Assembly (NCBI GenBank): GCA_965219415.1 | Contig: CBDCNP010000002.1 | Span: 1,344,001-1,408,000, forward strand | Direction: 5' to 3' | Origin: Candidatus Marinacidobacterales bacterium | Lineage (GTDB): Bacteria; Acidobacteriota; Vicinamibacteria; Marinacidobacterales; DATDRI01 | DNA: 64,000 bases | Shown: in pieces, positions 11 to 54,281 of the stretch | Layout of the letters: every line of letters begins with the position of its first letter | How positions within the stretch are numbered: the first letter of the stretch is position 1 | Position numbers and translations under genes: made by a program | Notes under the pieces: model-generated | Database searches by the model: none | The model's input: the letters and a program-made list of their open reading frames with translations, nothing else | Told to the model about the DNA's origin: nothing

Positions 11-415
11 ATGCTGTACTCCGAAGCCGACGTCGATAAGGCCGCGGTCGAGGCTTTGATCGAAGGCGCATACATCAACGGCGCTTTCAACGACCTCGAC
101 ACCGAAGCGATGCGTGCCGGTTTCCATCCGGTTTTCAAAATCCATGGGGTTAGGGATGGTGCTCTTGGTGAGTACCCGATCGATGACTGGATCGCTAGCA
201 TCGACAAGAAAAAAGCGGCGCCCGACTTCGATCCCGCGGATCAAAAGTGGGATCACAAGTTCGTCTTCGTGGATGTCACTGGAAACGCCGCCGTCGCAAA
301 GATCGAGCTCTTCAAGGACTCGATGCACGTCTATTCCGACTACCTTTCGCTGCTGAAGTTCGGCGACGGCTGGTTGATTACCGATAAGGTCTACTTCCGC
401 CACGGGGATACCTAA
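11..415 (+). CDS. NTF2-like (putative lumazine-binding) protein; may start upstream of the window
   Basis: FHP motif, 'VDVTGNAAVAKIEL...YSDYLSLLK...WLITDKVY' typical of the lumazine-binding/NTF2 family. Confidence 0.8.
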   Translation: MLYSEADVDKAAVEALIEGAYINGAFNDLDTEAMRAGFHPVFKIHGVRDGALGEYPIDDWIASIDKKKAAPDFDPADQKWDHKFVFVDVTGNAAVAKIELFKDSMHVYSDYLSLLKFGDGWLITDKVYFRHGDT

Positions 416-428
416 TCGCGGCGTTGAC

Positions 429-463
429 AAAGGGGAGCGACCGAGTTCGCTCCCCCTTTTTTT
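429..463 (+). terminator. Rho-independent terminator
   Basis: GGGGAGCGA-ccgagt-TCGCTCCCC stem followed by a T-tract just after the stop at 415. Confidence 0.85.
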
Positions 464-571
464 GCTTTCTCCGCCGCTTTGACACCTACCGGGGAGCATG
501 GCATTCTAGCCGATATCGATTCTACCATTCGAAATCAAAGCGCTCGTGCAAAACGAGCGAGTGTTCCGCTA

Positions 572-1504
572 ATGGTCTCCCTGTTTCGGCTCTTCCTCCT
601 GCGACCGGTGATTGTTCTATCATTCCTGGCAGGTTGCAGCCAAGGCGGCGGAGAGCCCTCCTCGGTAGCCGCAGAAAACGACACGCCCTCTCTCGCTCAT
701 CGGCCGCTTCTCACTTTGGCGTTCCGACAACCGATTGGTATCGTGATCACAAACCGGTACCGCCAGCCGCTGTTGGACTACCTTACCGAGCATACCTCTT
801 ATCGATTTCGGGCCGTGTTCAGTCGTGAGTCCGAGAGAACCGTGGGGATGCTCGAGCAGAGAATGGCGGAAATATCCCATTTGGGAGTGGTGAGCTATCT
901 GGAAGCGCACCGTCAATTTGGAGCGGTACCGCTGGTGAGGCCGTTGAACCGAGATCGCGAGGCGGTCTCTCGCAGCGTGTTCCTCACACGAAAGGACAGT
1001 CCTGTGAGAGGTCTAACCGATCTCGAAGAGCGCTCACTGGCTCTGGGAGCCTTTCACTCCACATTGAGCAACCTCATCCCCCGCCATGAGTTGATCCGCG
1101 CCGGTGTGCGCTTGGAGACTCTCAAAGACGTCGTGCATCTCGCCAACGACGAGGAGGTGGCGGCTACGGTTGCGGCGGGCCGCTTCGATGTGGGGGCGGT
1201 CGAGGATGTCGTTGGCGAAAGATATGTGGAAAAGGGCCTCCGCGTGCTCCACACTTCCGATCCCGTTCCCAGTGCGCCCCTAGTGATGCGCGACGACTTG
1301 CCGCGGCACGTCTCCGAGGCGTTACGGGAGGCGTTGTTGAAGCTCGATTTCAAAGAGTCGGACAGTCGGGAAGATTGGGACGAGGAGTTCCGCTACGGGT
1401 TCGCCCCCGCCAAGGACAGCGACTACCAACCGGTCCGAGAGATCATCGAGACCTCTCTTACACAATGCGCGAGCTCGTGCCACGGAGAGCTGGGAATCGA
1501 ATGA
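572..1504 (+). CDS. PhnD/SsuA-like phosphate/phosphonate substrate-binding lipoprotein
   Basis: Lipobox LAGC; 'SPVRGLTDL', 'STLSNLIPR', 'FDVGAV', 'GFAPAKDSDY' motifs; start moved to ATG 572. Confidence 0.8.
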   Translation: MVSLFRLFLLRPVIVLSFLAGCSQGGGEPSSVAAENDTPSLAHRPLLTLAFRQPIGIVITNRYRQPLLDYLTEHTSYRFRAVFSRESERTVGMLEQRMAEISHLGVVSYLEAHRQFGAVPLVRPLNRDREAVSRSVFLTRKDSPVRGLTDLEERSLALGAFHSTLSNLIPRHELIRAGVRLETLKDVVHLANDEEVAATVAAGRFDVGAVEDVVGERYVEKGLRVLHTSDPVPSAPLVMRDDLPRHVSEALREALLKLDFKESDSREDWDEEFRYGFAPAKDSDYQPVREIIETSLTQCASSCHGELGIE

Positions 1505-3280
1505 ACGCTTTCAAGCGACGCGCCACCGCCCTCCTCTCGCTGGCAACGACTCCCTTGCTCCTGTTCATCTCGTCGGCCATCGACATATACGTGAAGAACC
1601 AAAACCTGATGCAATACCAGTACGAAGTGTTGGCGCCGTTCGTCAAGCTTTCCATTCGTGACGATGTTCGTTGGCGTCCTCATTAGCGCCCTGTCCAAAT
1701 ACTGGCGGGCCTTCTCCTACGTCCTTTGGGCGTACTACGTAGCGGGCCCAGTTTTTCTCGTCTTCGCCTTCTTTCGCCCACTCCAATTTGTAGTGCCGGG
1801 CCTTTCACTTTGTGTACCAAACGGCGGCGGGCCTCACATTTTGGGCGATCTTGCTCCTCGTGGCGACGGTCGTCCTGGGGCGCCGGATGAGCCCGAAGGC
1901 TGCCATCCCCGCCTTCGCGGTTTTCGCATTCGCCTTGCTCGCCTTTGAGGGTGAGACGCTGCTCTACAATGTCCTACTGCAACCAGACGCGACACCGAAG
2001 GCGGTCGACAAGCGCGAACACTCGTCGGTGAACCCTTCCCGGCCTCTTCCCAACATCTACCACCTCATCTTCGATGGCTATCAGACCGATTTGCTCGAGC
2101 ACACTCTGTCCCCCGAATCAGAAGAGGCCTTGGGCGGGTTCGTCTACTTCCCGAAGAACACCGCCGTCTGGCCCTACACACCGGTATCGTTGGCAACGAT
2201 CTTTTCCGGCAGACGTTATTCTACGACCGACGGCGCGAAGACTACGTCAGGGCTGCGTTCGATTCCCGTGCCTCATTTGTCTACTGGCTCAAGTTGCAGG
2301 GATACGAGACGGTGGCCTACGTCCCCAACTCGTGGGAGGGGCGGGAGGCTTTTTTCGATCGCATGGTGCATCATGGAACCGCCGCCAGGGCCGAGCTCCT
2401 TACTCTGAACACAGAATCGCTTTGGAACACGTGGCTCTACAGTAATACTCCCGCTCCGTTGCGACCCACGCTCAGGCGTACCACTTGGTTCTCTGGCCTC
2501 GACGAAGAGGATTGGGACCGACTCGGGCGGCAGAGACTGCTTCCCCAGTCTGCTCCCGTGATCTCCTATCTCGGATTTCAAGGAATGCTGGCAGAGGAAG
2601 CGGCGCAATCTTCGTCGGGCCGGTACACCGTCGTGCACGTGTTGATTCCGCACGACCCTACCAAGCTGCGGGCCGATTGCACCTACGGCGTGGGATCCTC
2701 AAAGACCGGAGTCATCGACCAGTCTCGATGCGCGCTGAAAATGATCCTAGACTTCCTCGATCTCCTCAAGGACTTGGGCCGCTTCGACGACGCCCTCATT
2801 CTTGTCCACGGCGACCACGGAGGTTTCTATCGCACCAGGAACGGTGCGTTGGTGACGAAGGCCCGGTCCCGATCCCTGAACACTGTCCTTCTCATCAAAC
2901 CGGTGGCAGTGTCTGATGACGGCAGGGTCGAATTCATGGAACTAAGTACCAGCCTCTTGGACATCCCTTCGATTGTCATCGGATCGGTTGTGGACGCAGA
3001 CTCTGATCGGCCCAGCCTGGCGCCATGGGATCGTCGGCGCGCGTTCGTGCCGCTCCTCGAAGGTGAGCGGCTGGAGTCCGCCCGGCTCATTCTCGAACAG
3101 CAAGGCTTCCTGCTCGGAAGGGTCGACAAGGTCTATCGCGATGGCTATCCAGCCGGGACGGTGGTCTCCCAAGTCCCTCCTGCTTACGAAGGGTCGGGTG
3201 ACACCGAGGAAATCGCGGTGGTCATCTCCTTGGGTGCTCAAGACGGAGGACGGGCTCCACACGCGGATGCTGACAACTGA
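1501..3280 (+). pseudogene. Membrane sulfatase/alkaline-phosphatase-like protein with C-terminal PASTA domain, three frameshifts
   Basis: TM helices, 'PNIYHLIFDGY', 'HVLIPHDP', 'HGDHG', PASTA-like 'VPLLEG...GTVVSQVPP...VVISLG'; frame changes near 1657, 1812, 2220. Confidence 0.7.
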
Positions 3281-48382: not shown

Positions 48383-49195
48383 TCAAGTTGCCAGGGCCGA
48401 CTTGAGGCGTTCGAGGGAGCTCTCCATCGCCGGCTCGATCTCGTCGAGCCGGTCCTTAGCTCCCCAAGTCGATACGTCGACACCCAACACCTTCTGTGGC
48501 CCCAGGGAAAACGCCTTCATGGCCACCGCTCCCTCGATCGCGGGCCAACTCAACTGTACCTCGGTCCCAGTATCGGCTAGGACCTCTCCCGCCATCTTGT
48601 CTCCATTCTCGAGCGTGAGCTCGTAGTCGGTTCCGGGATCACCGATCCCACCAGCTTGCGTGAGCCACCTCGCCAGATTCCGCTCCTCCCGGTAGAAGGG
48701 GCGTAGCTGCGAAGACGTGTACTCGGCGGGAAGCATGGCCATCGCGTGGTGTCGGGAGCGTCCGAAGTAGTTTTCCAAATAGTGATTCAAGACCGCGAGC
48801 GCCATCGTCCATCCGGAGTTCACTCCCTGATACTCGTCGTCCCACTCCGCACCCTCGCCGAATCCGGATTGGACCAACTTCAAAACGGTGCGTCCGCCCG
48901 CCTGCTCAATGTCGATCTCAAATAGGACCGGTGACCGGCCGGGCAGCGTTGCGGTCAAGACTAGTCTTTCTTCGGGCCGCGCCTCCAAGACCTCGTAGGT
49001 GAAGCGGTAGTCGAACTTGTCGAAAATCCACGTCATACTGCCACCGGCCTTGGCCTCGCCTTCGGCGCCGTCGGTGAACCACTGCGGCACCTTCTTGGGA
49101 TCCGCCCAGGCCTCCCAGACCTGTTGAGGAGTGGCGCGGGTGATCATCTCCTTGGATAATGCGGCCCTTACGCTCCAGCGTTTGCTTCTTCTCAA
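48383..49195 (-). CDS. Tandem SRPBCC/AHSA1-domain protein
   Basis: 'ATPQQVWEAWADP...QWF', 'GW...L..L..YLE'. Confidence 0.85.
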   Translation of the reverse strand: MRRSKRWSVRAALSKEMITRATPQQVWEAWADPKKVPQWFTDGAEGEAKAGGSMTWIFDKFDYRFTYEVLEARPEERLVLTATLPGRSPVLFEIDIEQAGGRTVLKLVQSGFGEGAEWDDEYQGVNSGWTMALAVLNHYLENYFGRSRHHAMAMLPAEYTSSQLRPFYREERNLARWLTQAGGIGDPGTDYELTLENGDKMAGEVLADTGTEVQLSWPAIEGAVAMKAFSLGPQKVLGVDVSTWGAKDRLDEIEPAMESSLERLKSALAT

Positions 49196-49824
49196 CCATC
49201 GTCGTCCTCCTTCGGCATCGGATAACTCCCCATCACTAACCGGTACGGCCGTCCGGGACCGGCACGCCCATCGGAAAGTAGTGCAGGTGAACTGTGCTCC
49301 GCGATGACCTTCACTACGGCTTTCCGAAGGGCATCGCTAAATGACTCTCGTTGCTCCGCACTCTCGAACCGAAGCTCGGAAGCCATCGACAAGGTCGGCA
49401 GCCTCTTGCCCTGCTGCTGCGCGGCGCGGCTCACTTGCGAGAGCTCCCGTTGCACCAAAGAACCCAGGGCGATCAAGTACTGGGCGCTCATGGTGTCCTC
49501 GATTTGTCGCCAATCCGCCGCGAGCGGACCAAGAACTTCCGGAGCCAAGACGTAGGACCGCGCGCTGGCCTGGTAGCACCGTTCGATCAGGTTGCGCTTG
49601 CGGCGCTGCCCGGCCCGACGCAGAAAGCGAGCTCGCGCCAGCTCTCGCACGTGGTAGTTCACTTTCTGCCGCGGGAGCCGAAGCTGGCCCGCCAGTTCGG
49701 TGGACGACGCCGGACTCTTCGCCAGGTTCAGGATTCTGAGCCGCAGTGGATGCATCAACACCGTGGCCCGTTGAGGATCGTGGATGCTCTCAAGCTCGGT
49801 GGGTGTGGTCCGTCCTTGCTTCAT
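49192..49824 (-). CDS. ArsR-like winged-helix regulator
   Basis: 'HPLRLRIL...ELA...RQKVNYHVREL', 'ER.YQA'. Confidence 0.88.
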   Translation of the reverse strand: MKQGRTTPTELESIHDPQRATVLMHPLRLRILNLAKSPASSTELAGQLRLPRQKVNYHVRELARARFLRRAGQRRKRNLIERCYQASARSYVLAPEVLGPLAADWRQIEDTMSAQYLIALGSLVQRELSQVSRAAQQQGKRLPTLSMASELRFESAEQRESFSDALRKAVVKVIAEHSSPALLSDGRAGPGRPYRLVMGSYPMPKEDDDG

Positions 49825-49858
49825 GACAATTATTATTGTCGTACAATAATAATTGTCA
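49824..49858. promoter_or_regulatory. 35-bp palindromic operator overlapping the regulator promoter
   Basis: TGACAATTATTATTGT-cgt-ACAATAATAATTGTCA; minus-strand TTGACA -35. Confidence 0.8.
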
Positions 49859-49907: not shown

Positions 49908-51257
49908 TCAGTCGACCCGAATTTCCAATGGGAGATCCTGCCGGCGGAAGAGGCAGACACCGTTCACATCCTCGCAGACATAGTAGAGGACATAGGGCGT
50001 CACCATGGTGACACTCGATGCGCTAGCCGGGCTCTTGAGCTCGAACTCGACCCTTCGTACTTCCTGGCTTACCGGCTCGGGTGGGATGGACACCGTCAAG
50101 TAGCGTTGGTCGACCTCCCACCCCTCCGGCACATTTACCCAAAAGACCAGATCGCCGGCTTCGTTGTTCCAGTGCGCCTTGATGTCTGGGTTGGGACGGA
50201 AGACGATGTGAACCCGAACCGACTCTCCCGGCACCATGGCCGTGGGCACCACGGTTGTCTCCGCCCGAATCAATCCTTCCTCGTCTCGGCGTATGCGGCC
50301 CCCAGGATCTGGCTCCTCGCCCAACGAATCGGTTGTCGGAAAGCTCTCCGCCGGGTAGGCAAACTCGGCCCCGCCGGGCTCAGCGCCTAACGGCAAAGGT
50401 GCCTCGCCTCTAGCTTCGATCTCCTGCCGCGCTTCCGAAACCCAATCGTAGAACGAGTAAGGCTTGGTGAGCCGCGGTCCATACTGCTGAATGCGGCGCC
50501 GCCAGATATATTGATTGGGGTCGATATCGAGTGCCCGGCCCCAATGCTCTACCGCTCTCGCGAAATCGTCGTCCCGTCGATAAGCCGAGTCGTAGCGCCG
50601 ACGGTAAGCTACTCCTAGTCGAAAGTGGATGAGGCCCGCACCTTTGGTGGCTAGGGCCCGGTGGTAAGAGTCGATTGCCTCGTCCACTCGTGAGACGTCT
50701 TCCCACAGAAATATCGCGTCTCCCGGCAGTTCGATGATCGCTTGCTGGCGCGCCTCCCTCTTAGGGTGCGAGCGCTCTAGGAACTCCCGAAAATCTTCTT
50801 CGCCCGGCTGAACCGCACGGATGATACCGTGCTCGTCGACGAGGAGAGTGATCGGCACCGCCGAGACCCCCAGACGGTTCAAGGAGTCGATCATGATCGG
50901 CCAGTCCATTCTTTTCCACTGCATGAAGAGACGGGCTCGATCCGGATGCTGCTCTTGGATGATCCCTGCCACTGCTATGTCGCCGCGATCGGCAGCCTCT
51001 ATTGTTCTCGCGTGCCACCCGGGCACGTGCTTCCGGCAACCCGCTCACCAGGAGGCCCAGATGTGGAGTACGAGCTTCTTTCCTCGAAAGCTCGTCACCG
51101 AGAGGCGGCTTCCATCTTCGAGGGACGGCAGAACTAAATGCGGGAAGGGTTCGCCGACCCGCGGCTCGTATTCGTCAGAATTAGCGGGCTCAACAGGTCC
51201 CGCGATTGTCGCCACAAGCAGAAGCAGGGCCGGGACGAAGACGTTTGGTCGTGCCAT
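49908..51257 (-). CDS. Putative selenoprotein: signal peptide, TlpA thioredoxin (UxxC), TPR, DsbD-N-like domain
   Basis: In-frame TGA at 51045-51047 reads WASW-U-AG-C; frame continuous; hairpin downstream; C-terminal 'YYVCEDVNGVC'. Confidence 0.85.
51011..51027 (-). promoter_or_regulatory. Candidate bacterial SECIS hairpin
   Basis: CGUGCC-CGGGU-GGCACG beginning 18 nt 3' of the UGA. Confidence 0.6.
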
Positions 51258-51300
51258 GGCTCGCCCCATTTTTTACTGCTTATTAACGATCGGGGCAAGT

Positions 51301-51860: not shown

Positions 51861-54281
51861 ATGAATACGGTATGCCGAAGCATGTTGTTCCTTCTTGTCT
51901 TGCTCGGAGCTCTTGTCAATAGGTGTGTAAAAAAGTTCAGGCAGCAACAACCTTCGACGACTCCGTTACCCTGTCTCCATCTTCAAATCGAACGCCCAGG
52001 TGAACCTCTCGCATCAGCTCCGGTGCGTTGAGCCGGCGAAAATTCTTCTCCGCAACCAGAAGCAGTTTGAAGATTGTCGCAGTGGCGGACTCGACTTTCT
52101 TGAACCTTTTGGCCGCATCCGTTCTCAATCTCAGTGCAGCGAACGGTGACTCCACGACGTTGCTCGTGCGAAGGTGTTGCCAGTGAGGCTTGGGAAAGGA
52201 ATAGAAGCTGACCATCCGCTCCCAGTCCTCGTCAAGCACGTGCGCGGCCCCCGGAAGACCCTTGCGCAAGCACCAATCCTGGAACTTGGCCTTCTTCGTC
52301 TCGCACTCCTGCAGGCTGGTGGGGTAGGGGATCGCCGTCAACAGCGGCTTGGCCTGCGCCTGGTCCCTTTTCGGAATCCGGTCCAGTACGTTGAGGATTC
52401 GGTGGTTCCAGCACCGCTGCTCCTCAGCTTCTGGAAATACGTTTCGGGTCGCGGCCCAGATGCCGAGATGACCGTCACCGATCACCAAACGGGGACATCT
52501 CAGACCGCGCTTCTTCCGTCTCCGTAGCAGCGACGACCATGACGCTTCGGATTCTCGATGCCCGGCCTCCAGCGTCAGGACGATTTTCGTCCCGTCGGAC
52601 AGGCCACCAACCGCAACTAGCACCGCCGCCTTGTCCTTCTCAAGGCCGGCCTTCACGTACACGCCATCTACCCACAGGGACACGAGCTCGAGTTCGTCCA
52701 GTGGGCGAGCTAGCCACTGCTCGTACTCTCCCTGCCATTTCTGTTTCAGCCGCGACACCGTGCTGGGAGAAAGTGGAGCGTCCTCCCCTAGAAGCCCGCG
52801 GAGCGCCAAATCGAAATCTCCGTGAGCTAGTCCATGCAGGTACAGCTCCGGAATCAACTCGCTCACCGTTTCGCTCCGACGCTTGAACAGCGGAAGCACT
52901 CGACTTTCGAACCTCTCCTCCACGTCCCGTACTCTCGGCCGGCGAACCGTCACTGTGCCCACGCTCATCGTCAGCTTCCGAGGCTTACCGTATCCATTTC
53001 GATAGCCCGCCGTTGTGTCCACGGGCTTCCGTCTCTCCGATTTCTCACGCCCGAGAAGCTCCGTGACTTCGGCTACCATCAGCTCCTGCACCCAATCCTG
53101 GATCTCGAGCCTCGCCGCGAAGATGATTTCCGTTCTCGAACACCAGCAGCTTGGGAAAATATGATCCGCAGAGACAGGTTCGATTTCGTACTTCCCCAAG
53201 CCATGCGAAACAACAACATTGACCTCTGGATTCAAGTGATTCAAAGCTGGGACCCCGTGGACCTAGGGGCGACCTCCGGATATGGCGTTTTTGCAGACCA
53301 AGGCGGCGATCGCATTGAACGCGCTTTGTTTTCCTATAGCGATGATGTTCAAGACGCTGGTGCCTACGATATGGTCAAGGTAGTCGAAAAATCTGATCGT
53401 CGATTTGCAGACCTAAAGGAATTCGTGGCCAAGTATGATCCCAAGCGCATCGGCGTGAACTTCTCCGAAAGACTAGCCTTTGCTGATGGGATCACGCATG
53501 AAGACTACACGCACCTGAGCGATGCGATTGGCCCACAATTCGAGAAAAGAATTCTGTCAGCTGACATTCTGATCGTGGATTTCTTGTCGGGAAAGGTCAC
53601 CAGTGAATTGGTTCGTTTCGGCCAATCCGGTGAGGAAAGGTCCGAGTACCCGGAAAGGACATTTGGAAAAATCGTGCCTGGTGTCACCACCTTGAATGAG
53701 GTGCCAGGGAATGTATTTATGCGAAATCGGGACGGACGTGAAAGCCTCCAAGGTGATTACATCATTCAGCGGGGCGACCTCGTGAATACCCCCCTCGCGA
53801 GCGCCTACGTGCTGCGAGAAGGAGAGACTGAGCTACCGCCAGAGCACCAGAGAATCTGGGACCATGCGATGGTGGTCCGTGACATTCTACGGAGAAATAT
53901 CTTCCCAGGTCGCACTGGGGGAGAAACGCTGGCTATCCTAGCGGAAAAATTGGAAGAGGCGGGGTATCTCTATACCGATGAGGACCGTTACAACAGGAAC
54001 GGGGATCCCGAGAAAACCCAGGTTCATCTTGACCTCCATACGGAGGGCGTTGCCGATGAATTGATTGGCCCGAGGATTTCACCGCTGGATCCCGATTGGG
54101 TTCGGGAATTAAGGATTCCGCTCAATCATACTTTTACCCTGGAGTACATGGTCCACATGCCGGTGCCGGAGTGGGGTCGAGGAAAGCATATCTATCTCCC
54201 CTTCCACGATTCTGGGGTTGTCACAGAACGTGCGTCGAATTCCCTTATCCCCCTATTGACGGAATCTATCTCGTTCACTGA
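51861..54281 (+). pseudogene. M24 (Xaa-Pro aminopeptidase-like) secreted protein interrupted by IS256
   Basis: Signal 'MNTVCRSMLFLLVLLG' at 51861; body resumes near 53150 'IRRDRFDFVLPQAMRNNNIDLWI', 'AYVLREGE'; terminal shift near 54230. Confidence 0.75.
51907..53120 (-). mobile_element. IS256-family element, 5' end deleted
   Basis: 'YRNG', 'VDG', 'IGDG', 'QRCWNH', 'LRTSNVVES'; end sequence GAGCTCTTGTCAATAGGTGTGTAA at 51907; other end absent. Confidence 0.88.

Follow-up and report, generated by a model that had tools for sequence, protein, structure and literature searches.

Does an in-frame TGA in a minus-strand gene of Candidatus Marinacidobacterales end a short peptide, or does it specify a selenocysteine (Sec) within a larger exported enzyme? 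The locus lies in a 64,000-nt stretch of that bacterium's genome (assembly GCA_965219415.1, contig CBDCNP010000002.1, positions 1,344,001 to 1,408,000), the whole of which is called the window below. Two open reading frames (ORFs) under translation table 11, 51045-51269 and 49908-51026, lie in a common frame whose sole interruption is the TGA at 51045-51047. The minus strand at this site reads TGG GCC TCC TGG TGA GCG GGT TGC, and the TGA takes the place of the first C in the TlpA-type motif WxxWCxxC. A preliminary description of the window had proposed both the single frame split by one TGA and the placement of that TGA in the motif, and the sequence and ORF coordinates bear it out on both counts. 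We found that the gene almost certainly encodes a genuine selenoprotein. Our best explanation of the whole, to which we assign a probability of roughly 0.55, is that it is one exported protein of 449 residues in which a TlpA-like Sec domain and a TPR (tetratricopeptide repeat)-like region are joined to a DsbD_N-like dithiol domain that passes electrons internally. The gene and the codon in question are as follows:

49908-51257, minus strand: the complete selenoprotein gene, made up of 449 codons and a final TGA stop (49908-49910)
51045-51047, minus strand: the in-frame TGA, read as selenocysteine U71, at the same codon across homologous loci

Read through from the ATG at 51257, the gene yields 449 aa, with U71 and C74 lying within WASW-U-AG-C and C428 and C435 within the C-terminal sequence YYVCEDVNGVC. 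An alternative ATG at 51269 lies four codons upstream; we favor 51257 as the start, since the nearest ortholog (82% identity) has its own start at the corresponding M-A-R. Reading of the internal TGA under another genetic code was considered and ruled out, since the gene's own stop is also TGA.

If the TGA encodes an amino acid, what do homologs carry at this codon? We ran a six-frame search of 61 genomes (this one and 60 relatives) and found near-full-length matches in 12 relatives, each with exactly one internal TGA and with both flanks of that TGA kept in one frame at 54-82% identity. A shorter second copy is present in G014, and G010, G038, and G060 contain copies in fragments. Wherever the motif search located the site in these related genomes (15 of 15 loci), WASWUAGC was found with TGA at the identical codon; locus L038 falls outside the 15 because the motif pattern demanded W first, and its N-terminal piece still has one TGA. 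We then scanned 185,579 species, taking one genome for each; relatives are encoded at 542 loci, and the 80 best of these were retained. The pattern [W/F]ASWU[A/V]GC with TGA was present in 78 of these 80, the other two (L151 and L169) being without the whole N-terminal region, so that every locus covering the site (78 of 78) has the TGA. At the Sec position, a Cys codon was found neither in the 15 related loci nor in the 78 site-covering loci among the best 80 of 542. The preliminary description had named homologs with Cys or TGA at this position as a check on its reading; it is TGA that they carry, and the hairpin described below is kept along with it. By their record titles, the loci belong to Acidobacteriota, Verrucomicrobiota, Gemmatimonadota, Planctomycetota, and a few other labels, bearing in mind that the labels of metagenome-assembled genomes can be wrong. 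The Acidobacteriota among these titles include Candidatus Marinacidobacterales, Vicinamibacteria, Bryobacterales, Solibacteraceae, and Blastocatellia. Related TlpA-like paralogs have Cys at the equivalent position, as in WATWCPPC of L041.

The host genome (8.05 Mb in three contigs) encodes the machinery for Sec insertion. SelA (475.8 bits), SelB (375.8 bits), and SelD (328.3 bits) each scored above the curated cut-off, as did tRNA-Sec (69.7 bits), which ARAGORN also calls, as tRNA-SeC(tca). The check for selA, selB, selC, and selD that the preliminary description had suggested was thus answered by selA, selB, selD, and tRNA-Sec all being in the host genome. The selD gene itself (G000:C3:3889655-3890587, locus L012) has one in-frame TGA, from which we take SelD to be a Sec-containing protein, and a hairpin with the loop GUU lies ~33 nt downstream of that TGA. 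Small loops that begin with G are thus found downstream of the UGA in two other selenoprotein genes of the host, namely GGC in a peroxiredoxin (Prx)-like gene and GUU in selD.

Is there a signal in the RNA that could recode the UGA? The candidate is a hairpin of the selenocysteine insertion sequence (SECIS) type:

51011-51027, minus strand: SECIS-type hairpin CGUGCC-CGGGU-GGCACG, with a 6-bp stem and the loop CGGGU, backed by comparative evidence

It begins at the 18th nucleotide after the TGA, and the distance from the UGA to the loop is 23 nt. Published criteria for bacterial SECIS elements ask for a stem of 4-16 bp whose apical loop measures 3-9 nt and has a G at one of its first two positions, a UGA-to-loop distance of 16-37 nt, and a minimum free energy (MFE) of -7.5 kcal/mol or below (PMC13188914). 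Applied by hand, these ranges take in every value of the present hairpin: a 5-nt loop, a 6-bp stem, a G at loop position 2 followed by another G, 23 nt from the UGA, and an MFE of -10.2 kcal/mol. The preliminary description had placed a bacterial SECIS-like hairpin with a loop G 18 nt downstream, and in this it was exact in position and right in kind.

Comparison across the family gave stronger information than any single sequence could. In an alignment of 79 sequences (76 of them distinct), standard pairs occupy 98.7% of 456 cells, and all six unpaired cells fall at the closing pair; shifting the 3' arm lowers the pairing to 17-64%. The stem shows 15 single changes that are wobble preserving and two compensatory double changes (C-G to U-A and G-C to A-U). 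We also compared synonymous sites, using the 32 columns where the 78 loci agree to 95% or more on an amino acid with four-fold-degenerate codons. Third-position entropy was 0.10 bits at the Val codon and 0.29 bits at the Pro codon inside the hairpin vs. 1.06-1.98 bits in the other 30 columns, which makes these two the lowest of all 32. With the synonymous sites of the hairpin nearly frozen, this is the strongest of the tests, and it shows selection on the RNA itself.

Several features of the hairpin weigh against its being a recoding signal. Its energy is unexceptional in this G+C-rich context: a 66-nt piece gives z = 0.41 against shuffles, and the 25-nt hairpin (MFE -10.2 kcal/mol) gives z = -0.98, a fold as stable being reached by 31 of 200 shuffles. 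The hairpin stands above chance because it is conserved and not because of its folding energy. Three of the six stem pairs are invariant, and the covariation, consistent as it is, is thin because the stem hardly varies. The stem also encodes a conserved peptide, HVPGWH, so part of its nucleotide conservation is protein constraint, and the synonymous-site test covers two codons only. Rfam, searched around the selenoprotein gene, returned no RNA family of relevance. Taking these points together with the comparative sequence evidence, we regard it as strongly supported that codon 71 of an exported TlpA-like oxidoreductase receives Sec by a SelB- and SECIS-dependent route.

Gene callers take the other side of the question. 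Every one of the 120 best database matches is a truncated call of 332-417 aa that starts just past the TGA and covers 74-84% of the query, and most of the 150 representatives listed begin at query residues 78-81. The preliminary description was correct in saying that gene callers split this gene. The named entries among the 120 are all called "hypothetical" or "TPR repeat protein," except for one "thioredoxin family protein," and clusters in the ESM Atlas are named "hypothetical" or "TPR." Both this agreement among callers and the unexceptional energy of the hairpin would suit a TGA that is a true stop, be it in a pseudogene, through an assembly error, or between two genes, one for a peptide of 70-74 aa and one for a TPR protein of 372 aa. 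Such a stop would cut a thioredoxin fold in half at its active site. It would also have had to persist as TGA, never shifting from this codon, in all of the loci compared from several phyla (78 of 78 and 15 of 15), between two halves that are both conserved in frame and just ahead of a hairpin with frozen synonymous sites, in a genome with the full Sec machinery. We consider a true stop highly improbable. With 542 loci found and the closest database proteins truncated and mislabeled, present-day annotation of such phyla as Acidobacteriota, Verrucomicrobiota, and Gemmatimonadota overlooks a widespread envelope redox enzyme.

What kind of protein does the restored reading frame encode? Its parts are listed in order from the N terminus:

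51183-51257, minus strand: probable Sec-type signal peptide (Sec here meaning the secretory pathway), residues 1 to ~25, with MARPN, a hydrophobic stretch, and small residues, as read from the sequence
50793-51158, minus strand: TlpA/ResA/CcmG-like Redoxin domain with WASW-U-AG-C, residues 34-155, from Pfam and Foldseek
50403-50732, minus strand: TPR-like helical region, residues ~176-285, with one clear TPR repeat
50442-50522, minus strand: the most conserved stretch of the family, DPNQYIWRRRIQQYGPRLTKPYSFYDW, near-invariant in family alignments
49911-50330, minus strand: immunoglobulin (Ig)-like beta-sandwich, likely a remote DsbD_N homolog, residues 310-449, with C428 and C435 (CX6C), from hhalign and a structural model

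A comparable hydrophobic N terminus is present in 11 of 13 loci, this gene included, the exceptions being L028 and L032. We regard the N terminus as a probable Sec-type signal peptide and the protein as probably exported, in line with the signal peptide proposed in the preliminary description. The domain that follows matches Pfam Redoxin (PF08534; 44.4 bits vs. a cut-off of 26.6) and AhpC-TSA (PF00578; 38.7 bits vs. 26), and the closest NCBIfam models are ResA, StoA, TlpA, and DsbE, all of them well under their cut-offs. Foldseek with a full-length model returned ResA, CcmG, Etrx, and other thiol-disulfide oxidoreductases (probability 1.00, E values of 2e-6 to 1e-4, root-mean-square deviation [rmsd] ~10 Å). 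The TlpA-type thioredoxin domain of the preliminary description is recovered by these family and fold matches alike. The full-length AlphaFold2 (AF2) model is weak at the active site: its mean predicted local distance difference test score (pLDDT) is 68.8, and values fall below 50 at residues 69-79 and 100-131.

Between this domain and the C terminus, the AF2 model places helices at residues 180-282. When this fragment was scanned alone, TPR_2 reached 30.6 bits (cut-off 27) and TPR_1 29.2 bits (cut-off 27.8); in a scan of the whole protein, TPR_2 scored 25.2 bits, and both models were under threshold. The TPR announced by the preliminary description is in this sense a TPR-like region with one clear repeat, above the Pfam threshold in the fragment scan only. 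The most conserved stretch of the family falls here: DPNQYIWRRRIQQYGPRLxKPYxFYDW consists almost wholly of invariant columns in one alignment and of columns conserved at 90% or more in another. In the AF2 model, residues 260-271 have a pLDDT below 50, and a sequence search of the PDB with an 11-row family profile gave no meaningful match.

Folded alone with 150 sequences, the C-terminal domain is modeled as a beta sandwich with a pLDDT of 96.1, and the preliminary description's C-terminal beta domain ending in YYVCEDVNGVC is there in both sequence and model. Is it related to DsbD_N, the N-terminal domain of DsbD (nDsbD)? We compared a deep profile of the domain (150 rows from the family alignment) by hhalign with 32 DsbD_N domains, made up of 30 loci from relatives, the stand-alone copy of the host, and E. 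coli nDsbD. The match has a probability of 84.5%, an E value of 7e-6, and a score of 37.1 over 115 columns. It aligns KAHWNNE with the motif GWHTYWKNPGD and puts both cysteines in register with the DsbD redox pair. As controls, the reversed template scored 13.1, and 100 column shuffles had a mean of 11.5 (SD 2.4) and a maximum of 18.3. We think it likely that the domain is homologous to DsbD_N and has a redox-active pair, and we describe it as a remote homolog without filing it as a member of Pfam DsbD_N. The DsbD-N-like C terminus of the preliminary description stands insofar as profiles match with both cysteines in register; it misses the Pfam threshold, and its fold match is generic.

We then asked whether the two redox centers go together. 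Both C-terminal cysteines are kept in 146 of the 150 family rows. Three of the four rows without the pair are full-length homologs that are also without Sec (P0238 and P0251, both SxxC, and P0265, CxxS); such co-loss events are few, and P0238 and P0251 may share one. With P0255 (SxxS), these make up the four full-length non-Sec relatives found, all of them distant homologs, and none has CxxC in place of UxxC. In the non-Sec relatives found, then, the redox motif is lost and not rebuilt with Cys in place of Sec; as far as these sequences go, the family seems to keep Sec or to abandon dithiol chemistry altogether. To our knowledge, Sec without any Cys-for-Sec replacement is unusual among bacterial selenoproteins.

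The same pairing recurs in the host genome as two separate genes (locus L072, G000:C1:50581-53916, ORFs 1964-2506 and 1432-1971, both on the minus strand). The upstream gene encodes an exported AhpC/TSA-type Prx-like selenoprotein (113.9 bits) with SW-U-PFC and one TGA; the downstream gene, which overlaps it by 8 nt, encodes an exported stand-alone DsbD_N protein (42.3 bits) with YQVCTDVAC. Of 26 loci with a stand-alone DsbD_N gene (L072 of the host and 25 in relatives), 25 have a co-oriented WUP[F/Y/H]C gene that lies 470-570 nt upstream, the exception being L101. With this split module in 25 of 26 loci and the fused form besides, DsbD_N-type dithiol domains recur in this lineage as partners of exported Sec-redoxins. 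Co-loss and the split module are independent lines of sequence evidence, and both suggest that the two redox centers are coupled.

A further DsbD_N domain of the host genome was observed at L073 (G000:C3:1811152-1814442, ORF 31-1806, plus strand). The protein concerned is at least 591 aa long (the open frame has 949 aa) and has DsbD_N at its C terminus (31.3 bits); it also has a weak glycosyl-hydrolase-88-like match, and its N terminus extends beyond the locus analyzed.

A number of results count against a DsbD_N-like relay within the protein. The Pfam DsbD_N model (PF11412) reached 14.6 bits (E = 0.034), short of its cut-off of 25, over profile positions 4-113 of 119, and genome scans with this model did not report the C-terminal domain. 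With a shallow profile of 11 rows, hhalign against E. coli nDsbD and the stand-alone DsbD_N protein gave a probability below 1%. The top 50 Foldseek matches for the C-terminal model include no DsbD entry, only generic Ig-like matches. In a structural search, DsbD-alpha (1jpe_A) ranked 48th (Z 7.4, rmsd 3.2 Å, 102 of 116 residues), behind many unrelated Ig-like domains and a top match of Z 10.7. The cysteine spacing is CX6C here, CX5C being that of E. coli nDsbD and CX4C that of the stand-alone form, and the non-Sec homolog P0255 (SxxS) retains the C-terminal pair. No conserved neighbor gene hints at a reductant or a client, the best cluster occurring in seven of the 78 loci. Finally, a full-length DsbD is missing from the host genome, whose sole DsbD_TM gene is of the CcdA type.

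These results leave room for a protein that is a genuine selenoprotein whose C-terminal domain is a structural or binding module of Ig-like fold with a stabilizing disulfide, its UxxC being recycled separately, for example by CcdA and a thioredoxin-like protein. Stabilizing disulfides are common in exported proteins, and ordinary TlpA/ResA proteins are recycled by a separate system. The rank of generic Ig-like folds above DsbD-alpha, the missed Pfam DsbD_N threshold, the CcdA-type transporter encoded in the genome, and the Cys pair of the SxxS homolog would all be expected of such a module. It would leave without explanation a DsbD_N profile match that keeps both cysteines in register at a score far over the shuffles, the absence of the pair from three of the four non-Sec homologs, and an operon in 25 of 26 loci that joins another exported Sec-redoxin to a bona fide DsbD_N protein. 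We regard a purely structural role of the domain as a real but tentative alternative.

Under our preferred explanation, a dithiol domain that feeds the Sec center, the protein might work as follows. SelB loaded with Sec-tRNA(Sec) would bind the hairpin 23 nt past the UGA and insert Sec at codon 71, a step with strong comparative evidence behind it. The UxxC center (U71-A-G-C74) would then cycle between selenolate/thiol and selenenylsulfide while reducing a substrate in the cell envelope. The DsbD_N-like Cys pair, which lies across the final beta hairpin, would trade electrons with UxxC in the same molecule, and the helical region with its invariant RRRIQQYGP...PFYDW stretch may bind a partner or client. 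In E. coli, free nDsbD reduces CcmG, DsbC, and DsbG, and the proposed relay would mirror that action. The preliminary description had put forward such a relay, running from the nDsbD-like dithiol to UxxC and on to a TPR-bound client. For the intramolecular relay taken by itself, we see the evidence as evenly balanced.

What the enzyme reduces bears on a variant of the same explanation, in which the protein is chiefly a cell-envelope peroxidase with Sec71 as the peroxidatic residue, C74 as the resolving one, and the DsbD_N-like domain as a built-in recycler. Sec is typically favored in peroxide chemistry, the AhpC-TSA and Redoxin families both match, and the split analogue in the host genome is an AhpC/TSA-type selenoprotein. 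The WxxW-U-xx-C motif and the NCBIfam neighbors ResA, StoA, TlpA, and DsbE are of the thiol-disulfide reductase type, not the peroxiredoxin type, and the best Foldseek matches are ResA and CcmG-like reductases. A mainly peroxidatic role is, in our judgment, quite unlikely.

The fusion of UxxC with a DsbD_N-like dithiol, together with the parallel split operon, offers a concrete hypothesis on how exported selenoproteins are recycled. In its boldest form, which we consider doubtful, the protein would be an obligately Sec-dependent, self-recycling envelope enzyme, and the DsbD_N-like domain, whether fused or adjacent, would be the dedicated re-reducer of the selenenylsulfide. If this were true, the lack of CxxC orthologs would mean that the reaction catalyzed is one for which cysteine does not suffice. 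In combination with the operon of Sec-Prx-like and DsbD_N genes, the enzyme would then represent a previously unrecognized class of selenoprotein/nDsbD redox pairs in Acidobacteriota and neighboring phyla, and such pairs might function independently of the classical full-length DsbD.

The genes on either side in the window appear to be unrelated: an HTH_20 regulator, an AHSA1/SRPBCC protein, and an IS256/Mutator transposase. Two of them lie as follows:

49192-49824, minus strand: HTH_20 regulator gene
51937-53244, minus strand: IS256/Mutator-family transposase ORF (Transposase_mut, 199.6 bits)

Positions 49825-49857 hold an inverted repeat with perfectly matching 15-nt arms, GACAATTATTATTGT / ACAATAATAATTGTC, and a 3-nt spacer; it abuts the ATG of the HTH_20 gene and lies ~50 nt downstream of the selenoprotein stop. 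From its position, it looks like a putative operator for autoregulation of HTH_20, and weak sub-threshold Rfam matches at this place are probably due to the palindrome. The transposase ORF lies ~680 nt upstream of the selenoprotein start, so the native upstream region may be disrupted or replaced in the host genome.

How far does this protein resemble systems already described? Sec-containing thiol:disulfide oxidoreductases of the Prx-like and TlpA-like kinds are already catalogued, with several listed in the part of PMC13188914 available to us, and the part of the Global Ocean Sampling paper seen likewise catalogues Prx-like 1-3 selenoproteins (PMC2398784); the chemistry is, for this reason, of a known kind. 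The catalogued proteins and the present one have in common a thioredoxin/Redoxin fold, Sec as the first residue of UxxC, and a SECIS directly downstream. They differ in that the catalogue entries, in the text seen and compared by description only, name single Pfam/CDD domains, whereas the present protein adds ~290 residues, consisting of the TPR-like region and the DsbD_N-like domain with its second Cys pair. The entry "Redoxin family protein (PF08534, UxxC)" in the available text of PMC13188914 may belong to the present family, and "TPR" is absent from the searched text of both PMC13188914 and PMC2398784. We found no description of the three-domain architecture in the literature searched, supplements lying outside that search, which agrees with the remark in the preliminary description that it was not known as characterized. 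Within that literature, the combination of Sec-TlpA, TPR-like, and DsbD_N-like parts is new, and its novelty lies in the architecture, not in the chemistry.

The top NCBIfam match, NF041054 ("ResA-like WAxxUGC motif-containing protein," WAxxUGC_long), is a TlpA/ResA-like selenoprotein family with a WAxxU motif. Membership in it was ruled out: the protein scored 62.6 bits against a cut-off of 300 and matched only profile positions 85-243 of 354, and in a genome scan, where it scored 56.3, non-Sec TlpA paralogs of the host scored 68, 57.5, and 57.1. The motif also differs, being U-A-G-C here and UGC in NF041054.

Two E. coli proteins are among the closest known parallels. YbbN/CnoX has a thioredoxin-fold domain followed by TPR helices and an SxxC motif; it resides in the cytoplasm and lacks both Sec and an Ig-like domain. 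The thioredoxin fold and the TPR helices are common to it and the present protein, and distant non-Sec homologs of the present family likewise have SxxC. The alpha domain of DsbD has an Ig-like sandwich in common with the C-terminal domain, and in both a Cys pair, redox-active in DsbD and probably so here, spans the last beta hairpin. It works with a thioredoxin-fold partner in the envelope, as the C-terminal domain may do. Unlike the DsbD alpha domain, the domain described here is fused C-terminally to its presumed partner, has no membrane domain, and would serve a partner that uses Sec.

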